Shown here: positions 7,524-57,270 of the stretch, in pieces
Numbering within the stretch: position 1 is the stretch's first letter
How the letters are laid out: each line of letters begins with the position of its first letter
Assembly (NCBI GenBank): GCA_039738415.1
Contig: JBCLLY010000003.1
Span: 17,084 to 81,083, forward strand
Source of the DNA: Candidatus Levyibacteriota bacterium
Lineage (GTDB): Bacteria; Patescibacteriota; Microgenomatia; Levybacterales; GWA1-39-11
Length of the DNA: 64,000 nt
Reading direction: 5' to 3'
Notes under the pieces: generated by a model
Database searches by the model: none
What the model saw: only the letters and a program-made list of their open reading frames with translations
Told to the model about the DNA's origin: nothing
Program-made: the position numbers and the translations under genes

Positions 7524-7590
7524 TAGATAGCAAATGGTTTATAGTAAATGGTAAATAAACTAAAAACTTAATTACATCTCTACCATACGC

Positions 7591-7618
7591 CATTTAACAT
7601 TTAACATTTAACATTTAA
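7591..7618 (+). repeat. Tandem heptamer (CATTTAA) x4 abutting the guaA start codon
   Basis: Four perfect 7-nt units at 7591-7618; ATG at 7620. Confidence 0.9.
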
Positions 7619-7619
7619 C

Positions 7620-13993: not shown

Positions 13994-14376
13994 TGTCATT
14001 CTGGGGACTCAGAGCGAAGCGTGGAGGACGCCAGAATCAAAAATGAGCAAGCAAATGTATGTTTACATTATGGGAAACAATAGACCCACTCTTTATACGG
14101 GAGTAACGAACAATTTGGTTAGGAGAGTTTACGAACACAAAAATGATCTAATAGAAGGTTTTACCAAACGATATAAATTACATAGATTATTGTATTATGA
14201 GAATTTAGAAGGACAACTTGAATCAATAGTTTGGGAAAAACAAATAAAAGATATGAATAGAGCAACAAAATTAGAAATGATTAAAAGTAAAAATCCGAAC
14301 ATGAGGGATTTGTATGATGAGATAATATGATTCTGGTCAAGCTCGCCTCGCTGAGTCGAAGCGGGCCAGAATGACA
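13994..14376 (+). mobile_element. GIY-YIG cassette with terminal inverted repeats and hairpin arms
   Basis: TIRs TGTCATTCTGG (13994-14004) and CCAGAATGACA (14366-14376). Each arm self-pairs: ATTCTGG 13998-14004 with CCAGAAT 14031-14037, and 14330-14336 with 14366-14372. Inserted between the aclB stop and the aclA start. Confidence 0.75.
14043..14330 (+). CDS. GIY-YIG nuclease family protein (95 aa, UPF0213/YhbQ-like)
   Basis: YVYIM...LYTGVTNNLVRRVYEH...GFTKRY motifs. Start moved to ATG 14043, because the track N-terminus reads through the hairpin arm and overlaps aclB. Confidence 0.88.
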   Translation: MSKQMYVYIMGNNRPTLYTGVTNNLVRRVYEHKNDLIEGFTKRYKLHRLLYYENLEGQLESIVWEKQIKDMNRATKLEMIKSKNPNMRDLYDEII

Positions 14377-14383
14377 ATTTAAT

Positions 14384-16195: not shown

Positions 16196-16227
16196 TGATT
16201 AAACACTATTTCAAAATCTCTCACCTA

Positions 16228-16314
16228 TGTCATTCTGAACTTGTTTCAGAATCTATTTAATAAGTACTAGATTCCGGGTCCCTTCAGAGGCAGGCAGGCA
16301 AGCCCGGAATGACA
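16228..16314. repeat. Gene-less double-hairpin element (MITE-like) of the TGTCAT family
   Basis: Ends TGTCATTC (16228-16235) and GAATGACA (16307-16314). Hairpins ATTCTGAA 16232-16239 with TTCAGAAT 16245-16252, and ATTCCGGG 16271-16278 with CCCGGAAT 16303-16310. Confidence 0.7.
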
Positions 16315-16335
16315 TCAAATTAGACATTAGTAATT

Positions 16336-25922: not shown

Positions 25923-27134
25923 CTAAAAATTTCCTATTTTAGGAATTACGAAATTATTTTTTTTATTTAATTTCTGTTTATCAAACAAACTTGTTCCAAA
26001 AGTTATTTTTCTGTTGTCAAAAAGTGGGTAGATTTGTTCCGCCTTTTCTTCAAGTTTGGGATTATCAAATAATGATGTTTGTCTTTTGCTGTTACTGGAA
26101 AAGTCATAAATTGTTGCGCCTGTTGTGCGGTATAAGGTGTTATCTTTGTAAATCTTTTCAAAACCTTCATGAAGCTCGTCCCTAATGAGTATTGGAAAAG
26201 AAGTTCTTTCAGATAGTTTTATCTCGACTCCGTGATAAGAAAACTTTTGAGTTTTTAGGAAAATAAATATTCGTCCTACGAAATAATTGTATTTGCGGGC
26301 TTTTAAGAAAACATCTTCAACGTGGCCTAGAACTCTCGCCCACAGTATATTCTTATCATTTGTCGCGGGAACAACTGTATGCGATTTGGTTATAGATTTA
26401 TACTCATCTTTGGGGTTTGGATCTACCTTAAATAAAGATATGCCGTTTAGTTCCTGCCAAATTTCAAAAAAGGGTTTTGAGAAAGATTTTTTTATAAAAT
26501 TTTCAGGGCGAGCGGTAAAATCATAAGCTGTTTTGATATTAAGTGCTCTTAACCGCTTTGTGTTTTGATGTCCAATTCCCCAGACCTTTGAGATATCAAT
26601 TTGTTTTAAAAGAAATTCTGTTTTTTCTTTTGGAATAATAGTTAATCCTGATGGTTTATTTAGATTTGCAGCAATTTTTGCAAGAGATTTGGTTATCGAA
26701 ATTCCGATAGAAACCGTAATTCCTAAAGAGTTCTCAATTTCATCTTTCATATTTTTCCCGATTTGTTCATAAGACATATTTAGAGGTTTTTGTAGTCCTT
26801 TTAGATCCGCAAATCCCTCATCTACGGAATGAATCTCAACGCATGGAGAGTACTCTTTCATTATTGAAAACATTCTGTTTGAAAAAAGGTGATAGAGTTT
26901 GTAGTCAGAGTTTGCGATTATTACACTTGGAAATTGCTTCTTTATTTCCCAGCAGGGCATTCCGCGAATTACCCCCAGCGCTCTTGCCTCATATGATACT
27001 GCTGTAGCAATTCCTCTTTCAAGACCACTTACGACTGGTTTGCCTTTGAGATTAGGATTTACTGCCTGAGTAACTGATGCAAAAAAAGCGTCAGCGTCCA
27101 AGTGTAAAATCGTCTCAGGCCAGGAAGTGGACAT
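25923..27134 (-). CDS. dinB: Y-family DNA polymerase IV
   Basis: ILHLDADAFFASV and SVDEGFADL catalytic motifs. Lies downstream of the lexA-like gene on the same strand. Confidence 0.92.
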   Translation of the reverse strand: MSTSWPETILHLDADAFFASVTQAVNPNLKGKPVVSGLERGIATAVSYEARALGVIRGMPCWEIKKQFPSVIIANSDYKLYHLFSNRMFSIMKEYSPCVEIHSVDEGFADLKGLQKPLNMSYEQIGKNMKDEIENSLGITVSIGISITKSLAKIAANLNKPSGLTIIPKEKTEFLLKQIDISKVWGIGHQNTKRLRALNIKTAYDFTARPENFIKKSFSKPFFEIWQELNGISLFKVDPNPKDEYKSITKSHTVVPATNDKNILWARVLGHVEDVFLKARKYNYFVGRIFIFLKTQKFSYHGVEIKLSERTSFPILIRDELHEGFEKIYKDNTLYRTTGATIYDFSSNSKRQTSLFDNPKLEEKAEQIYPLFDNRKITFGTSLFDKQKLNKKNNFVIPKIGNF

Positions 27135-27210
27135 AATACATTTTTAAAACCTTATGGGCGAGGATGAAGATAGTTATTTTAGTAAGCTTTAATTTGAACA
27201 TATAGGTTAA

Positions 27211-27675
27211 ATTTCTAATTGATCTAATTTCTAATTATTCTAATCAAAAACCAATAAACCAAATACTAACTAATTATTTAACTTTTTTATAAATAGTGTT
27301 GAAAATTAGATTTAACTCTTTTGCTTCTTGCCATAAAATCATTGCTTTATCTTTTAATTCAGGAACTGCGACGATTATCATCCGTAGAAAATGCTTACAT
27401 TCGCGTGATTCTTTTTTGCATATTCCCACTTTATGTCTGAAATCTTGTTTGCTCTCAGCGTCATCCGCTTCACAGTAATTAGCTCCTACACTCGTTCCGC
27501 ATTTAACTAGCTGGTTTATTAAGGGATTGGTTACTATGTCTTTAGGAACTTCTCTGCAAAACTTAATAATATCTTCGCCAAACTTTGCGGTTCTTTCTTC
27601 TAGATCGTATTTGGGATTTTTTTCATTAGTCATTTTTTAGGTCAATTAGATTAATTAGAATAATTAGGTTAATTT
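27211..27675. mobile_element. Four-helix-bundle gene cassette flanked by CTAATT-word arms
   Basis: Left arm 27211-27247 matches 57164-57200 at 34/37 nt. Right arm TTAGGTCAATTAG...GTTAATTTT (27637-27675) matches 57249-57270. The arms are imperfect inverted repeats (CTAATTGAYCTAA). Confidence 0.6.
27274..27633 (-). CDS. Four-helix-bundle protein (23S rRNA intervening-sequence protein family)
   Basis: 119 aa; LEERTAKFGEDIIKFC..., LINQLVKCGTSVGANYCEA..., SKQDFRHKVGICKKESRECKHFLRMI, typical of the family. Confidence 0.88.
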   Translation of the reverse strand: MTNEKNPKYDLEERTAKFGEDIIKFCREVPKDIVTNPLINQLVKCGTSVGANYCEADDAESKQDFRHKVGICKKESRECKHFLRMIIVAVPELKDKAMILWQEAKELNLIFNTIYKKVK

Positions 27676-28236
27676 TTAATATTTTCTCATTACGCTCTTT
27701 ACCAATCCAAATATTTTCAACTCTTGCGTAGGAATAAAGTCAGGGTAGTTAGGGTTTGCGGCACGCAAAATACTTATTCCATTTTTTATATCCAAAAATT
27801 TTAGTGTCCATTCATTGTCAATTAGCGCAAGTACTATATCTCCAGACCGTGCTTGCGTAGTTCTCTCTATAACGACCAAATCTTCCGAGAAGATGCCTGC
27901 TCCTTCCATAGAGTCACCTGATACTTTTAGCAAAAATGAGCTATTTGGCTTGTCTATAAGATATTCATCAAGTGAGAGAAAATTCAACTCTTCCTCAGCC
28001 CCCGTAGGAAATCCCGCTTTTATATTTCCTAAGATAGGAACTTGAAAGAAAAAGTTAGTCGGGGAAAGTTTGTTGTTTAATTTCTGCAAATAATTTTGCT
28101 CAACAAGCTTGCCTATAATCTTGTGAATGGCATTTTTTGAGGAAAGTCCGAAAATCAGAAGCATTTCAGAGTATGAAGGAATGCGTTTGTTCTTTCTGTA
28201 AAACGAACGAAGAGAATCTAGGTATTCGGATTTCAT
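27676..28236 (-). CDS. lexA: LexA-like repressor (wHTH plus S24 peptidase)
   Basis: N-terminal HTH region, Ala-Gly site in GNIKAGFPT, nucleophile GDSMEGAGI, Lys in EWTLKFL. An SOS box sits in its own promoter. Confidence 0.88.
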   Translation of the reverse strand: MKSEYLDSLRSFYRKNKRIPSYSEMLLIFGLSSKNAIHKIIGKLVEQNYLQKLNNKLSPTNFFFQVPILGNIKAGFPTGAEEELNFLSLDEYLIDKPNSSFLLKVSGDSMEGAGIFSEDLVVIERTTQARSGDIVLALIDNEWTLKFLDIKNGISILRAANPNYPDFIPTQELKIFGLVKSVMRKY

Positions 28237-29934: not shown

Positions 29935-30006
29935 GCCTAGATTATACCAAAGTCCTTTTATGGCCTATTTTAAGCTCAAATTTCAATATACGTAATAGTT
30001 TAAAAT

Positions 30007-30118
30007 TTTACTCCGCACCCAAGTAGACCCGCTTCGCTAAAGCGCCAGCGAGGCGAGCCCGCTTCGCGCAAGGGCAAGGATGGCAAGTTGTGAGATCGTG
30101 GGCGGTGCGGGGTTTACC
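30007..30118. repeat. GC-rich hairpin island (TTTACYCCGCACCCAA ... GGGGTTT family), long copy
   Basis: 5' TTTACTCCGCACCC pairs with 3' GGGCGGTGCGGGG. Shares both termini with 33036-33086. Visibly GC-rich against the AT-rich background. Confidence 0.65.
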
Positions 30119-30183
30119 TCATTTACCCCTTGACCCTTCGGCAGGTTCAGGATCTTCGTAGTAATTCAAGCTAAAATTACTAC

Positions 30184-30212
30184 TTGACGTACAAATCAAG
30201 ATATTGTATTAT
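30184..30212 (+). promoter_or_regulatory. tuf promoter
   Basis: TTGACG 30184-30189, 17-nt spacer, TATTAT 30207-30212. Confidence 0.65.
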
Positions 30213-30255
30213 TCATTCACACCTTTTTTAACGGGTGTTTTATTTTTTAAAAAAT

Positions 30256-31443: not shown

Positions 31444-31451
31444 GTTTACTT

Positions 31452-31480
31452 TGTCATCGTCATCCCGATTAAATCGGGAT
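31452..31480. repeat. Single-arm relic of the TGTCAT hairpin family
   Basis: TGTCATCGTCATCCCGAT-TAA-ATCGGGAT; palindrome 31462-31469 with 31473-31480. Confidence 0.5.
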
Positions 31481-31520
31481 CTCGCACATTTTAAAATTAA
31501 GTTTTAGACAAAAGTATTGA

Positions 31521-31547
31521 GCCTGCTTAAGATAAGCAGGTTTTTTT
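31521..31547 (+). terminator. Rho-independent terminator-like hairpin between tuf and rpsJ
   Basis: CCTGCTTA (31522-31529) pairs with TAAGCAGG (31533-31540), followed by T7. Confidence 0.7.
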
Positions 31548-31564
31548 GTTAAAATAAGGTAAAT

Positions 31565-31873: not shown

Positions 31874-31876
31874 AGC
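31857..31876 (+). repeat. Direct repeat copy A (the authentic rpsJ 3' end)
   Basis: TTGAGATAAAGATGTAAAGC is 19/20 identical to 33110-33129. Each copy is followed by a TTCG-loop hairpin. Confidence 0.8.
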
Positions 31877-31977
31877 CACTTCGTGGAAATTCTAAATTCT
31901 AATTCCGAAATCCGAAACAACTTTCAACTTCCAAATTTTAAAACACTTATTTTGCCGCATTTAAATTAAGAAGCTAT

Positions 31978-33017: not shown

Positions 33018-33035
33018 TTTAGTTTTAAGTTGAAA

Positions 33036-33086
33036 TTTACCCCGCACCCAATGCTACGTTTGTTAGGTCGTGGGTGAGGGGTTTCC
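33036..33086. repeat. GC-rich hairpin island (TTTACYCCGCACCCAA ... GGGGTTT family), short copy
   Basis: ACCCCGCACCCA pairs with TGGGTGAGGGGT (one mismatch). Same termini as 30007-30118. Confidence 0.65.
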
Positions 33087-33109
33087 TGTTTTGCATTTGA
33101 AACAAAATT

Positions 33110-33129
33110 TTGAGATTAAGATGTAAAGC
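33110..33129 (+). pseudogene. Relic of an rpsJ 3' end (direct repeat copy B)
   Basis: TTGAGATTAAGATGTAAAGC reads (F)EIKM-stop versus the authentic (V)EIKM-stop. The only difference within the 20 nt is a synonymous Ile codon (ATA/ATT). Confidence 0.65.
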
Positions 33130-33306
33130 TTGCTTCGCAAGAAGTTTCAAGAACCAAATTCCAAGTTCCAAGAACTTATTTTCACCTTGAATTTGAATTA
33201 GCTTCATTTTTTTGTATCCATGGACTAGTCAATGGTGCTAAGTAAACGAATTAACCACTTCGTTGATTTAAATCATCGAAGCAAAGACACGCTGGTTGTT
33301 TTCTTA

Positions 33307-35000: not shown

Positions 35001-35065
35001 TTTATAATTTTCAATTTGCAATTTTTAATCAAATTAAAATACTTAAATCTTAAAACTCTAAAAAT

Positions 35066-37173: not shown

Positions 37174-37302
37174 TTTAAAATTCAAAATGAAAAATTCAAA
37201 ATTATCTTTCGACCCTGAGCTCAAGAACGAAGGACAATTTAAAATTAAAAATTCAATAAAGTTTAACTTTAAACTTTTAACTTTAAACTTTTAACTAATT
37301 TT

Positions 37303-39960: not shown

Positions 39961-40074
39961 ATGAAAGTAAAAGCGTCAGTAAAAAAGAGATGTTTGAAAT
40001 GCAAGATTATCCGCCGAAAAGGTAGAGTTCTTGTTATATGTGAGAATCCCCGTCACAAGCAAAGGCAGGGATAG
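39961..40074 (+). CDS. rpmJ: 50S ribosomal protein L36 (zinc type), missing from the ORF track
   Basis: Manual translation: [37 protein letters not shown]-stop. C-x2-C-x12-C-x4-H pattern. Confidence 0.9.
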
Positions 40075-40129
40075 GAATAGTTAAAAGTGCAAAATGCAAA
40101 ATAGAAATTTAAAATTTTAAATTAAAAGT

Positions 40130-40886: not shown

Positions 40887-41044
40887 GCCAATTTTGAAAA
40901 ATTGGAAATTTGAAGCACTAAGTACGAAATACGAAATAAATATGAGAAATAAAAATAACAAAATACAAAATAGGTTTGAAATTTTGAATTTAAATAATTT
41001 GAATTTGTTTAGGATTTAGAATTTAGAAATTAGAATTTAATAAT

Positions 41045-54823: not shown

Positions 54824-54847
54824 TCGTCCAGGAATAGTCAAAGAAAA

Positions 54848-54915
54848 TGTCATTGCGAGCGTAGCGAAGCAATCTATAGAGATCGCCACGGCTACCTTGC
54901 AGCCTCGCGATGACA
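54848..54915. repeat. Gene-less double-hairpin element of the TGTCAT family
   Basis: Ends TGTCATTGCGAG and CTCGCGATGACA. Hairpins ATTGC 54852-54856 with GCAAT 54869-54873, and ATCGC 54882-54886 with GCGAT 54907-54911. Confidence 0.7.
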
Positions 54916-55506: not shown

Positions 55507-57162
55507 TTACCAGCTTGTTCTTATATGATCCATTGCATACTTTAGGGTTCCGTTTACTTTCTTACCGGGATTAAAAATGTTATACGGGTCAAAAATTCTT
55601 TTTGTCTCCTCGAAAAGTTTAATTATTTTTGCGCCATACATCTGCTCAAGATAGGGTGTGCGAATAATACCATCGTTGTGTTCCCCCGTAATTGAGCCTT
55701 TGTATTTTGCAATAATTCTATAGACTTTATCCGATATTTCAGGAATTGCAGTTCTTACTTTGGGATTTTTTATATCAACCAGAGGTATGATATGGAAATT
55801 GCCGTTCCCGACGTGCCCCGCAACCGTATACATGAACTCCGGATGTTTCTTAAGAATGTCAGTTATTTTAGGTAAAACTTCCGCTATATACTCAGGTTTT
55901 ATAACAAAGTCGTCTATAAAAGGTGCTGTGTGTTTGTTGCGAATTTTTTTTCTTAACAAATTAAAACTTTCACGGCGGACTAACCAGTATTTTTTCTCTT
56001 GCCCCTCTTCAGCTATTTGAATTAAAGGATGCATAGGTTTTAGTCTTTCACGTAAAGTTTTTAATTTTTCCTCAATTTCATCACGGTTATTGCCTGCAAA
56101 ATCAACCTGAAGAACAAGTTTTGGAAGTTTTTTTCCTGTAAACATTGAAATAAATGCCGGTAAGAATGCAAGGCCGGCAGAAATCATACCGATTAGTCCG
56201 AGTTGTCTTGCAAATTCAGGAAAATATTTTAAAGCAAGCATCAATGTATTGTCGTCATATGACTCAAAGCTTTCCGGGTCTAAAAAAAGAACTTCATCAA
56301 TAATTTGTTTTAGGTGCGCGGTGCTTTTAAGATAAATAATTAACATACCGTGGTGCGCACGAACGGGAACAAGTTCCAAATCTCCTTCAATCATTAATCC
56401 AAGAGTCCCTTGCGCGCCTGTCCAAAGCTGAGTTAAGTCAAAAATTCCCTTTTCTCTATCATATACATTCCATAATAAATACCCCGCTGAGTTCTTTGAA
56501 ACATCGGGTTTTGCTTTCATTATAACTTCGTAATTATCATTAATTAACTTGTACATTTTTCTATAAACGCTTCCCTCAAAGTTTTTTTGGTCCATTTTTT
56601 TCCTTAACCCCTCTTGCGTAAGGGGTGTAAATTCGTAAATCTTTCCGTCGGAAAGCACTGCCTTAACGCGCTTTACATACTTTTCGGTTTGACCATACTG
56701 TAGAGATTTTTCTCCTCCCGAATTATTATTAAATATTCCCCCCATAGCACATAGTCCTTTTGATGCCGGGTATGACGGAAAAATTAAATTTTTCTCAAGA
56801 GTTTTTTCTTCAAAGTCGCGATAAAAAACACCGGGCTGTGTGGTTGCTATATTTCCGTTTATTCTTGGGATGTGGTTAAAATATTTATTAAAAGAAACGA
56901 TAATGGACTCATTAATTGCGCCACCGCTCATATCTGTTCCAGCGCAGCGCCCGGTAAGAGAAAGTCCTGGGTGTTGCTTTTTATTTTTATTTACAAAATT
57001 AACTAGAGTCCTAATATCATCTTCTCCCTTTGGAAAAACAACAACCTCGGGCTTAACTTCAAAAAGCGAGGCGTCATGACTATATTCGATAAGAGTTTGT
57101 TCGTCCGTTAAAACGTCACCCTCAATGGTTTTTTTTAATTCGTTTAATAAGTTCTGATCCAT
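55507..57162 (-). CDS. FAD-linked oxidase (GlcD/D-lactate dehydrogenase-like)
   Basis: PCMH-type FAD-binding N-terminal domain (LTGRCAGTDMSGGAI), C-terminal GSITGEHNDGIIR. Confidence 0.75.
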   Translation of the reverse strand: MDQNLLNELKKTIEGDVLTDEQTLIEYSHDASLFEVKPEVVVFPKGEDDIRTLVNFVNKNKKQHPGLSLTGRCAGTDMSGGAINESIIVSFNKYFNHIPRINGNIATTQPGVFYRDFEEKTLEKNLIFPSYPASKGLCAMGGIFNNNSGGEKSLQYGQTEKYVKRVKAVLSDGKIYEFTPLTQEGLRKKMDQKNFEGSVYRKMYKLINDNYEVIMKAKPDVSKNSAGYLLWNVYDREKGIFDLTQLWTGAQGTLGLMIEGDLELVPVRAHHGMLIIYLKSTAHLKQIIDEVLFLDPESFESYDDNTLMLALKYFPEFARQLGLIGMISAGLAFLPAFISMFTGKKLPKLVLQVDFAGNNRDEIEEKLKTLRERLKPMHPLIQIAEEGQEKKYWLVRRESFNLLRKKIRNKHTAPFIDDFVIKPEYIAEVLPKITDILKKHPEFMYTVAGHVGNGNFHIIPLVDIKNPKVRTAIPEISDKVYRIIAKYKGSITGEHNDGIIRTPYLEQMYGAKIIKLFEETKRIFDPYNIFNPGKKVNGTLKYAMDHIRTSW

Positions 57163-57163
57163 A

Positions 57164-57270
57164 ATTTCTAATTATTCTAATTTCTAATTAATCTAATCAA
57201 GCACTAATTATCTAATGTCCAATAGTGCCGGAATTCATTATCTAGAAATTAGGTCAATTAGGTTAATTTT
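57164..57270. repeat. Gene-less counterpart of the four-helix-bundle cassette arms
   Basis: Left arm is 34/37 identical to 27211-27247. Right arm TTAGGTCAATTAG+GTTAATTTT is identical to 27637-27675 minus an 18-nt stutter. The 48-nt centre holds a GCACTA/TAGTGC hairpin. Confidence 0.65.

Follow-up and report, generated by a model that had tools for sequence, protein, structure and literature searches.

A PF05635 gene between inverted word arms at operon junctions of Levyibacteriota and other bacteria: a candidate intervening-sequence-type cassette in mRNA

Intervening-sequence (IVS) elements of rRNA and the S23p open reading frames (ORFs) inside them have been known since the early 1990s, and we know of no explanation so far for their function or their mode of spreading. 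What, then, is a gene of this family doing in a protein-coding operon? On a 64,000-nt stretch of a Candidatus Levyibacteriota genome (assembly GCA_039738415.1, contig JBCLLY010000003.1, positions 17,084 to 81,083; hereafter the window), a 119-aa four-helix-bundle ORF lies between an S24 LexA-like gene and the gene of a Y-family polymerase (dinB), all on the minus strand. It is enclosed by short arms (locus 1) that recur elsewhere in the window with no gene between them (locus 2). An earlier note on this DNA read the gene as cargo between arms that the host already possessed, and locus 2 as the same site left empty. Our comparisons do not bear out either idea. Gene and arms are best read as one conserved cassette that arrives as one unit, and we favor, with a probability of roughly 0.6, the interpretation that this is a selfish element of the IVS type that lives in mRNA and is propagated both horizontally and vertically.

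The window has a G+C content of about 36% and includes a ribosomal-protein operon, and the nearest relatives of its proteins are named Levybacteria or Microgenomates. Loci retrieved from relatives are labeled Lnnn; L002 (GCA_039738455.1) belongs to a near-identical sister genome of the window.

The arms themselves are as the earlier note described them. The left arm at 27211-27247 matches 57164-57200 over 37 nt with 3 mismatches, these are the only two copies in the window, and none of 100 dinucleotide-preserving shuffles gave a match. The right arms of both loci have TTAGGTCAATTAG and GTTAATTT in common, and the "18-nt stutter" of locus 1 is real, consisting of two extra 9-nt words, ATTAATTAG and AATAATTAG. 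Left and right arms are inverted repeats of one another, at locus 1 in 17-nt blocks (94%), and at locus 2 over 39 nt (74%) and in some shorter blocks. The GCACUA/UAGUGC stem reported at locus 2 is nested in a predicted hairpin of -27.8 kcal/mol (z -4.0), and the arm there does overlap the end of the transketolase C-subunit gene, by its last three codons and the stop. The placement of the enclosed gene between lexA-like and dinB genes and its matches to the PF05635 and TIGR02436 profiles agree with the description of locus 1. The single word TCTAATT is not enriched across the window (33 matches versus 28 expected) and is unusual only in its clustering at the two loci.

To see how far this arrangement extends, we scanned one genome per GTDB species and confirmed relatives of the gene, all of one subfamily, in at least 562 species-representative genomes; the best 80 of these were used for the comparison of loci. 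Their proteins are 68-83% identical to that of the window, and their hosts include many Patescibacteria classes, Ignavibacteria, Caldithrix, Bacteroidota, Omnitrophota, Marinimicrobia, Caldisericota, and Eisenbacteria. Under a strict criterion of at least three perfect CTAAT words per flank, arms were present in 60 of 76 5' flanks and in 60 of 76 3' flanks of these loci, which come from different species. CTAAT clusters numbered 171 in 1.117 Mb, versus at most 15 for composition-matched words that do not overlap CTAAT, and 131 of 174 clusters (75%) flank a homologue of the gene; the earlier note had named generic CTAATT filler as what would refute its reading, and these counts reject filler as an explanation. 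Three independent genomes with unrelated neighbors again have CTAATT-word arms around the gene, in one case between an M48 peptidase gene and obg, in another among hypothetical genes upstream of ATP synthase, and in the third between genes of a solute-binding protein and a type IV secretion system (T4SS) pilin. Both window loci lie between protein-coding genes and not in rRNA; Rfam at gathering thresholds found one tRNA only in the whole window, and an rRNA signature occurs at only one of the 80 related loci (L091), 5 kb from its cassette. It is this recurrence of the same arms around the same gene in unrelated surroundings that points to a single cassette.

Nearly all of the 80 loci follow one layout: AATT(A/G)ACCTAATT...CTAATTGACCTAAAnA-ATG, the ORF, often a ATTGGGATTTGATTAG segment, and AATTAG words ending in AATTAGAAATT. 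At locus 1 (Table 1) the 5' arm fills the 42 nt from the stop codon of the lexA-like gene (27676-27678) to the ATG of the ORF; the inner 3' segment corresponds to the ATTGGGATTTGATTAG segment of other cassettes, with the conserved motif ATTGGGATTT. Word spacing is quantized at 7 nt (TCTAATT) or 9 nt (NNYCTAATT) and is almost never 8, and the modal number of words per arm is four. The number differs between strains: L005 has one word more than L012. In an alignment of about 35 nt, the two arms are 87% complementary. The termini take the form AATT(N1-3)CTAATT ... AATTAG(N1-3)AATT, and conservation drops immediately outside them. An ungapped conservation profile anchored at the ATG was discarded as uninformative because the arm registers vary between 7 and 9 nt.

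Table 1. Full cassette (locus 1) with its neighboring genes, and ORF-less miniature (locus 2), in window coordinates
Feature	Position	Strand	Sequence and remarks
LexA-like gene (S24)	27676-28236	-	
5' arm	27634-27675	-	AAATTAACCTAATTATTCTAATTAATCTAATTGACCTAAAAA, transcript orientation; four CTAA(TT) words at 9-nt spacing
119-aa PF05635 23S_rRNA_IVP / TIGR02436 gene	27274-27633	-	Profile matches; first ~10 codons lie in the predicted long stem
Inner 3' segment	27248-27273	-	TTAGTTAGTATTTGGTTTATTGGTTT, right after the stop codon; pairs with the 5' end of the ORF in the minimum-energy fold
3' arm	27209-27247	-	TTGATTAGAATAATTAGAAATTAGATCAATTAGAAATTT, transcript orientation; AATTAG words spaced 9, 7, 9 nt; terminus AATTAGAAATT
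Y-family polymerase gene	25923-27134	-	
Miniature 5' arm	57239-57268	-	AATTAACCTAATTGACCTAATTTCTAGATA; first word ends the transketolase C-subunit gene, giving its final Leu-Thr codons and TAA stop
Miniature interior	57201-57238	-	ATGAATTCCGGCACTATTGGACATTAGATAATTAGTGC; ATGAAT start remnant, nested GCACUA/UAGUGC hairpin, post-ORF-like segment
Miniature 3' arm	57163-57200	-	TTGATTAGATTAATTAGAAATTAGAATAATTAGAAATT; abuts ATG 57160-57162 of the FAD-linked oxidase gene

The cassettes are strongly oriented with respect to their neighbors. The upstream neighbor is co-directional in 76 of 81 cassettes and the downstream neighbor in 67 of 76. From the upstream stop codon to the cassette ATG the median distance is 44 nt, so that the arm is essentially the spacer, and in 24 of 70 cases the stop codon of the upstream gene falls within the arm or at it. 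In 58 of 81 5' arms, every reading frame contains a stop. A Shine-Dalgarno (SD)-like motif is absent upstream of the locus 1 ORF and in all 81 cassettes; because only 11 of the 76 host genes in the window have such a motif, its lack is only mildly notable and not a special feature of the cassette.

Several loci depart from the simple arrangement. L109 (1152-1478) is one of the rare non-co-directional cases: closely downstream of dinB it has a four-helix-bundle gene of 55% identity, encoded on the other strand. In L042 (7985-8372), the main cassette is directly followed by a second ORF with a weak PF05635 match (E 2.4e-5) and then by an ORF-less CTAATT hairpin, which looks like a tandem, partly decayed array. 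At several loci (L039, L052, L073, L080, L090, L095, and L005), a second 5'-type arm stands after the gene, with a 3'-type arm behind it; this suggests a full cassette with an adjoining ORF-less unit, possibly formed by nested or tandem insertion into an existing arm. Three of about nine Pfam-annotated contexts lie inside T4SS-like clusters (PrgI, TraC-like, TraG, T4SS pilin): L119 (2501-4502), L123, and L015/L021. The T4SS-like cluster of L119 contains two cassettes of different subfamilies. These contexts hint that conjugative elements may carry cassettes between hosts.

Orthologous junctions reveal three states of the same site. For locus 1, a metagenome scan with the window DinB yielded 21 loci. 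The lexA and dinB genes are adjacent in about 17 of them, none with a four-helix-bundle gene in between, and the gene in the window is therefore a lineage-specific gain. Among close relatives, whose LexA proteins are 83-88% identical, the junctions of L099, L100, L102, and L103 are empty, 57-66 nt long, and without arms. In L098 and L101, an ORF-less unit with a CTAATT-type 3' arm ending in TTAGAAATTT stands right after the lexA stop, and the full cassette occupies this junction in the window and in its sister L002. A native leader ending in AAAATGTATTATGTCCAC is kept downstream in empty, miniature, and full junctions alike. More distant relatives have lexA-dinB spacers of 25-50 nt with no element, and the empty state is therefore ancestral. 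The comparison of lexA-dinB spacers thus upholds one half of the cargo idea, the lineage-specific gain of the gene, and removes the other, since truly empty junctions lack any arms into which a gene could have been placed.

Locus 2 is also not an unoccupied site. In L130-L132, the genes of the transketolase C-subunit and the FAD-linked oxidase overlap by 4 nt (AGC CGC AAA TGA ATT, with the ATG inside). The window has a 95-nt unit exactly at that overlap; the new stop (AGA AAA TTA ACC TAA) adds Leu-Thr to the C-subunit, which has 331 aa in the window versus 329 aa in close relatives. The interior of the unit retains an ATGAAT remnant and a ATTGGACATTAGA...GTGCTTGATTAG post-ORF segment, as in full cassettes. 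The unit at 57163-57268 is therefore an inserted ORF-less miniature and not a landing pad awaiting a gene. Presence of the element varies at both orthologous junctions. Miniatures are common in the retrieved genomes, with three in the ribosomal-protein operon of L097 alone, and are almost perfectly palindromic, including the pairs CTAAATAA/TTATTTAG and AAATCCCAAT/ATTGGGATTT. Together, the junctions show insertion, in operon orientation, at the point where one gene stops and the following one starts, and the putative origin of ORF-less miniatures as derivatives of the cassette shows as a pattern across them. No consistent target-site duplication was found at 72 cassettes and the two junctions with known empty states, where a 4-nt AATT duplication would be indistinguishable from a terminal word.

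The same two junctions hold other features of their own. In the more distant relatives L105 and L106 (2813-3001), the lexA-dinB junction carries a 188-nt hairpin of other words (GGTAGA.GATAGAAAGTAGA / TCTACC...), apparently an independent occupation by another word-hairpin family. On the minus strand of the window, a 28-codon upstream ORF (27115-27201, MFKLKLTKITIFILAHKVLKMYYVHFLA) begins just past the cassette and extends over the start of dinB in a different reading frame. In the cassette-free relatives L099-L103, the equivalent small ORF begins 2 nt past the lexA stop (…KKIL.L.K.FF.MYYVH), which suggests a conserved leader peptide or translational coupling of lexA and dinB. At the transketolase/FAD-oxidase junction of L134 (3487-3900), a 128-aa membrane-like ORF has been inserted. 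About 28 nt of the junction (CCGCAAATGAATTTATTTGAAGAATTAAA) are duplicated on both sides of it, and the inserted ORF starts with the oxidase's own first nine codons, apparently another route by which a gene can enter a junction of overlapping genes.

Divergent paralogues keep the architecture but have different words, and their arms are always inverted: TATCAAT/ATTGATA in L037 (51% identity), AATCCCA/TGGGATT in L088, ATCCAAA/TTTGGAT in L072, CTAAR/YTTAG in L049, and CCAGAAATCCGAAC with its inverse in L033. A search with the L037 paralogue found 6,610 proteins at E below 1e-20, and in four independent contexts of this second subfamily the arms consist of TCAAT/TCAAC words. Word counts were 499 CTAAT-type versus 48 TCAAY-type for subfamily 1, and 0 versus 39 for subfamily 2. 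Both types coexist in the genome of L119, where 1.2 kb separates a cassette of subfamily 2 (TCAAT arms) from one of subfamily 1 (CTAATT arms). The words thus belong to the cassette lineage and not to the host. Arm sequence turns over completely across the family while the inverse relation of the two arms stays, which amounts to covariation at the family level.

Copies on cyanobacterial plasmids, at 35-39% identity, repeat the pattern with GTAATTC/GAATTAC words. In Dolichospermum, GTAATTC occurs four times upstream of the gene, whose stop codon is immediately followed by a perfect 33-nt inverse of these words. Short tandemly repeated repetitive (STRR) sequences are tandem heptanucleotide repeats in intergenic regions of heterocystous cyanobacteria, and the tandem heptamers flanking the plasmid copies resemble them. 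To our knowledge, no connection of STRR sequences with PF05635 genes, or with inverted pairs around an ORF, has been described, and our literature search found nothing that combines the two.

The distant plasmid genes occupy varied positions: between helicase and DNA methyltransferase genes in L127 (Dolichospermum), between cas2 and cas1 in L128 (Anabaena), and between csx2 and cas1 in L129 (Pseudanabaena). A large association screen lists "23S rRNA IVP" as a domain associated with CRISPR adaptation (PMC10910872). Copies wedged in at cas1/cas2 or in restriction-modification operons may explain that association.

The protein encoded by the cassette has the S23p/Avd fold. It matches Pfam PF05635 at 46.8 bits (gathering score 33.8; E 3.9e-12) and NCBIfam TIGR02436 at 64.3 bits (cutoff 24). 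An AlphaFold2 monomer model has a pLDDT of 92.8, with helices at residues 11-28, 35-57, 62-89, and 91-117 and disorder at residues 1-8. Foldseek matched this model to 2RLD (TM-score 0.79-0.87) and 2GSC (about 0.8), and phmmer matched the sequence to 2RLD at E 3.6e-9; both structure entries contain five chains, and the Xanthomonas S23p protein has been described as a homopentamer (PMC4990558). Matches to Avd, the accessory protein of diversity-generating retroelements (DGRs), were weaker, with TM-scores of 0.63-0.69 for 4DWL and the Avd chains in 8UB7 and 8UBE. The earlier note had named links of this family to both rRNA IVS proteins and Avd, and the fold matches and the published record (PMC4990558, PMC10053308) support both.

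The family is large and tightly conserved, with at least 8,000 matches, the top 120 of them at 74-100% identity. Codon-position identities of 0.76, 0.82, and 0.46 at positions 1, 2, and 3 show the signature of strong purifying selection on the protein gene. The words are retained despite synonymous sites near saturation, and the arms themselves must therefore be maintained. Cassette G+C follows that of the host (r = 0.80 across hosts of 28-55% G+C), which indicates long residence in each lineage. Nothing pointed to a phage vector or to a known defense system: the protein had no match in IMG/VR and a single weak, partial one among INPHARED phages, and PADLOC had no match.

In the minimum-energy fold of the window transcript of locus 1, the arms pair across the ORF. 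Across 77 cassettes, the predicted arm-arm pairing had a median of 36 bp and reached at least 20 bp in 65. As a background for these predictions, RNAduplex energies of all pairs of window spacers were dropped because long GC-rich segments elsewhere dominate them.

The closest parallel to this anatomy is the ORF-bearing IVS of 23S rRNA in Leptospira, Coxiella burnetii, Brucella, and the Xanthomonas-type S23p genes. In Coxiella, an S23p-family ORF with a poor SD lies in the loop of an inverted-repeat stem, two or three tandem GACAGAT heptamers in strain-variable number stand directly before the ATG, and RNase III cuts in the stem at the first repeat (PMC4990558). PF05635 ORFs have also been reported in rRNA insertions of bacteria of the candidate phyla radiation (PMC11270868). 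The cassette shares with these elements the PF05635 protein, the position of the ORF in the loop of an inverted-repeat stem, and tandem repeats of variable number upstream of the ATG, of about 7 nt in IVSs and of 7 or 9 nt here. In both, an SD is poor or absent, the transcribed strand is the sense strand, and distribution is sporadic, which for IVSs has been attributed to horizontal transfer (PMC4990558, PMC11270868). The differences are those of place and state: the cassette sits at stop/start junctions of protein-coding operons, whereas IVSs sit at rRNA helices 9, 25, or 45; purifying selection acts strongly on the cassette ORF, in contrast to the decay seen in that of Coxiella; for the cassette we document words specific to each lineage and miniatures that lack the ORF; and RNase III cleavage, shown for IVSs, would apply to the cassette by analogy. 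By its sequence, the cassette thus appears to have every anatomical feature of an IVS except the location in rRNA.

Avd is a second point of reference. In the DGR ribonucleoprotein, the Avd pentamer binds a dedicated RNA stem-loop, and RNA segments flanking the template pair with each other (10.1101/2023.10.23.563531); the family link between S23p and Avd is stated in PMC10053308. The cassette protein has the same four-helix-bundle fold. In contrast to Avd, it has no reverse transcriptase and no template or variable repeat nearby in the Pfam-annotated contexts; its sequence identity to Avd is only about 13%, and its nearer structural matches are the non-DGR S23p entries 2RLD and 2GSC.

From these parallels we propose the following scheme for an IVS-type selfish cassette in mRNA. 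The unit comprises an AATT(N)CTAATT-word arm, an ATG, the PF05635 ORF, a short inner inverted segment, and an AATTAG-word arm ending in AATTAGAAATT. Its insertion between the stop of one gene and the start of the next, in operon orientation, is shown by the junctions above. Because the cassette has no promoter or SD of its own, transcription would most likely be by read-through; because the AT-rich words provide stops in three frames at the 5' edge and the 3' edge can abut an ATG, insertion can be tolerated even at overlapping ATGA junctions. In the transcript, the arms, the first ~10 codons, and the post-stop segment are predicted to pair into a long, imperfect, A/U-rich stem with the ORF in its loop. 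Host RNase III would cut this stem, freeing the cassette RNA and uncoupling the neighboring cistrons, as the Coxiella, Leptospira, and Salmonella IVSs suggest. The protein, a homologue of the Avd pentamer that binds an RNA stem-loop, would recognize the words of its own lineage; we infer this from the co-divergence of words and proteins, the quantized spacing, the agreement of four to five words per arm with the five chains of 2RLD and 2GSC and with pentameric Avd, and the binding of a stem-loop by Avd. ORF-less miniatures such as 57163-57268 would then be derivatives that persist or spread without the gene.

Several observations weigh against this scheme. A reversed-3'-flank control still gave a median of 15 bp of pairing, although this control is weak because of some self-symmetry in the AATT-rich words. 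Within the CTAATT subfamily, the complementarity of cognate arms (38.7) is no better than that of arms from different loci (39.3; shuffled, 16.8), and pairing could therefore be a by-product of one word building both arms. There is no wobble signal on the sense strand: mismatches compatible with G:U numbered 68 versus 94 C:A mismatches, a difference that goes slightly the opposite way (p ~0.05). The 7/9-nt register is often unequal between the two arms, so that the stems are bulged. What is conserved within this subfamily is thus the word and its inverted arrangement and not a locus-specific helix. The RNase III signature motif was not found in the 64-kb window, which is too little sequence to be informative. 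The amelioration of G+C and contexts shared by related species (Obg in L020 and L023, RuvC in L070 and L084) indicate that a good part of the distribution is vertical. Finally, no transposase, recombinase, or reverse transcriptase occurs in the Pfam-annotated neighborhoods of L002 (window region, +/-10 kb), L003, L005-L015, and L119-L126; with no linked mobility enzyme and no target-site duplication, the mobility step is without a mechanism.

A rival explanation is at the DNA level, in which the arms would be terminal inverted repeats with binding sites for a transposase or recombinase encoded elsewhere, as in a miniature inverted-repeat transposable element (MITE) or a mobile insertion cassette (MIC), and the gene would be a passenger whose RNA pairing is incidental. 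Some MITEs are co-transcribed with genes; the Correia elements of Neisseria are short, have inverted ends, lie in operon spacers, and form hairpin transcripts that are RNase III substrates, and MICs of the IS231 type consist of insertion-sequence ends around a non-transposase gene. Our cassette is likewise a short element with inverted ends in intergenic operon spacers. Its termini are conserved and end abruptly, ORF-less miniatures exist, and presence varies at orthologous junctions; the lack of a G:U bias and of locus-specific compensation is also what would be expected if the words matter as DNA. However, the ends are arrays of 7/9-nt words in variable number and not a fixed terminal inverted repeat, and we know of no cognate transposase, in keeping with the lack of a nearby one and of a detectable target-site duplication. 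For a passenger one would not expect 70-80% identity, together with unchanged arms, to be kept in different phyla, and passenger status would not explain why the enclosed gene is always of the same family, co-diverging with its ends so that each protein subfamily has its own word. The near-absolute sense orientation (76/81) would need the extra assumption of selection for passenger expression, and the rRNA IVS relatives are known substrates of RNA processing. We therefore consider a MITE or MIC unlikely, while recognizing it as the most serious competitor of the IVS-type reading.

Alternatively, the protein could be a resident regulator that binds RNA or DNA, with the tandem words as operators, controlling its own expression via the arms and that of other operons via ORF-less word hairpins. 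Strong purifying selection, words kept despite saturated synonymous sites, G+C ameliorated to the host, and the binding of an RNA stem-loop by its homologue Avd would all fit such a role; 7/9-nt spacing with about four to five words per arm is reminiscent of a binding-site array, and miniatures stand immediately upstream of start codons, as do the three in the ribosomal-protein operon of L097. From a host regulator one would nevertheless expect a stable locus and a promoter of its own. Instead, presence is patchy at orthologous junctions of close relatives, the neighboring genes are unrelated in every lineage, and the protein is found in distant phyla at 70-80% identity. In addition, the rRNA IVSs, as homologous elements, are considered selfish, and the ORF in Coxiella, besides decaying, is apparently not expressed (PMC4990558). 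On balance, we find a regulator distinctly improbable. The notion that the arms are AT-rich filler or slippage products and the likeness of the two loci a coincidence has in its favor that many other window spacers are built of period-7 words and that TCTAATT alone is not enriched across the window, but we rejected it as scarcely credible given the at least 10-fold excess of CTAAT clusters over matched controls and their association with the gene, the same words at the gene in hosts of 28-55% G+C and several phyla, the coexistence in one genome of two word types each with its own protein subfamily, and the empty orthologous junctions without words.

Those other spacers deserve a description of their own. 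Co-directional spacers at 2375-2449, 2873-2947, 7524-7619, 35001-35065, 37174-37302, 40075-40129, 40887-41044, and 31874-31930, several of them in the ribosomal-protein operon, consist of period-7 words followed by their inverse. AGTTAAA/TTTAACT occurs in almost the same form at 2375 (fold z -4.5) and at 2873 (fold z -2.7), and four repeats of AAATGGT/CATTTAAC make up another example. The rpmJ gene for L36 lies at 39961-40074, within what a simple ORF caller leaves as a 172-nt "spacer"; the true L36-S13 spacer is the 55-nt word hairpin at 40075-40129, and L097 has a CTAATT-type miniature at this place. The period-7 spacers may be ORF-less miniatures of other PF05635 subfamilies; a cognate full cassette for their words was not found in the window. 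A second, G+C-rich hairpin repeat occurs in the spacers 14331-14383, 16196-16335, 31444-31564, and 54824-54896 (GTCATTCTGAAC..GTTTCAGAATC, GTCATTGCGAGCGTAGCGAAGCAATC, GTCATCCCGATTAAATCGGGATC), and similar GTCATTCCCGC...GCGGGAATGAC hairpins were seen at the lexA-dinB junction of L107 and in L069. This looks like a separate repeat family. The long spacers 29935-30234 and 33018-33306 have CCCCGCACCC motifs in common.

A bolder idea extends the IVS-type reading to the mechanism of spread. A PF05635 pentamer might read its own lineage-specific tandem words, about one per subunit, on folded transcript arms or on single-stranded DNA, much as the TRAP ring reads spaced GAG triplets, and this nucleoprotein, in place of a conventional transposase, might copy cassettes and miniatures into operon junctions and rRNA helix tips. 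We regard this as quite unlikely. If it were true, rRNA IVSs, the period-7 hairpins of Patescibacteria, and perhaps the cyanobacterial heptamers would form one new class of self-propagating element, and the Avd of DGRs would be a domesticated relative.

In the full texts that we searched, with subscription journals covered only in small part, there was no account of a word-armed cassette at operon junctions, of subfamily-specific words, or of miniatures. The family is treated there as an rRNA IVS ORF, an Avd relative, an annotation label, or a CRISPR-adaptation-associated domain, and IVS-type elements outside rRNA are apparently undescribed. The cassette described here means that a PF05635 ORF in a stem of short words is not peculiar to rRNA and is very widespread at operon junctions, on a scale of thousands of protein clusters per subfamily. 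For genome annotation, it matters that cassettes separate genes coupled in translation and change both the C-termini and the start contexts of the genes beside them. Cognate pairs of proteins and words (CTAATT versus TCAAT, among others) make binding and cross-specificity testable, and nature provides empty, miniature, and full alleles of the same junction, with clear predictions for RNase III mapping.

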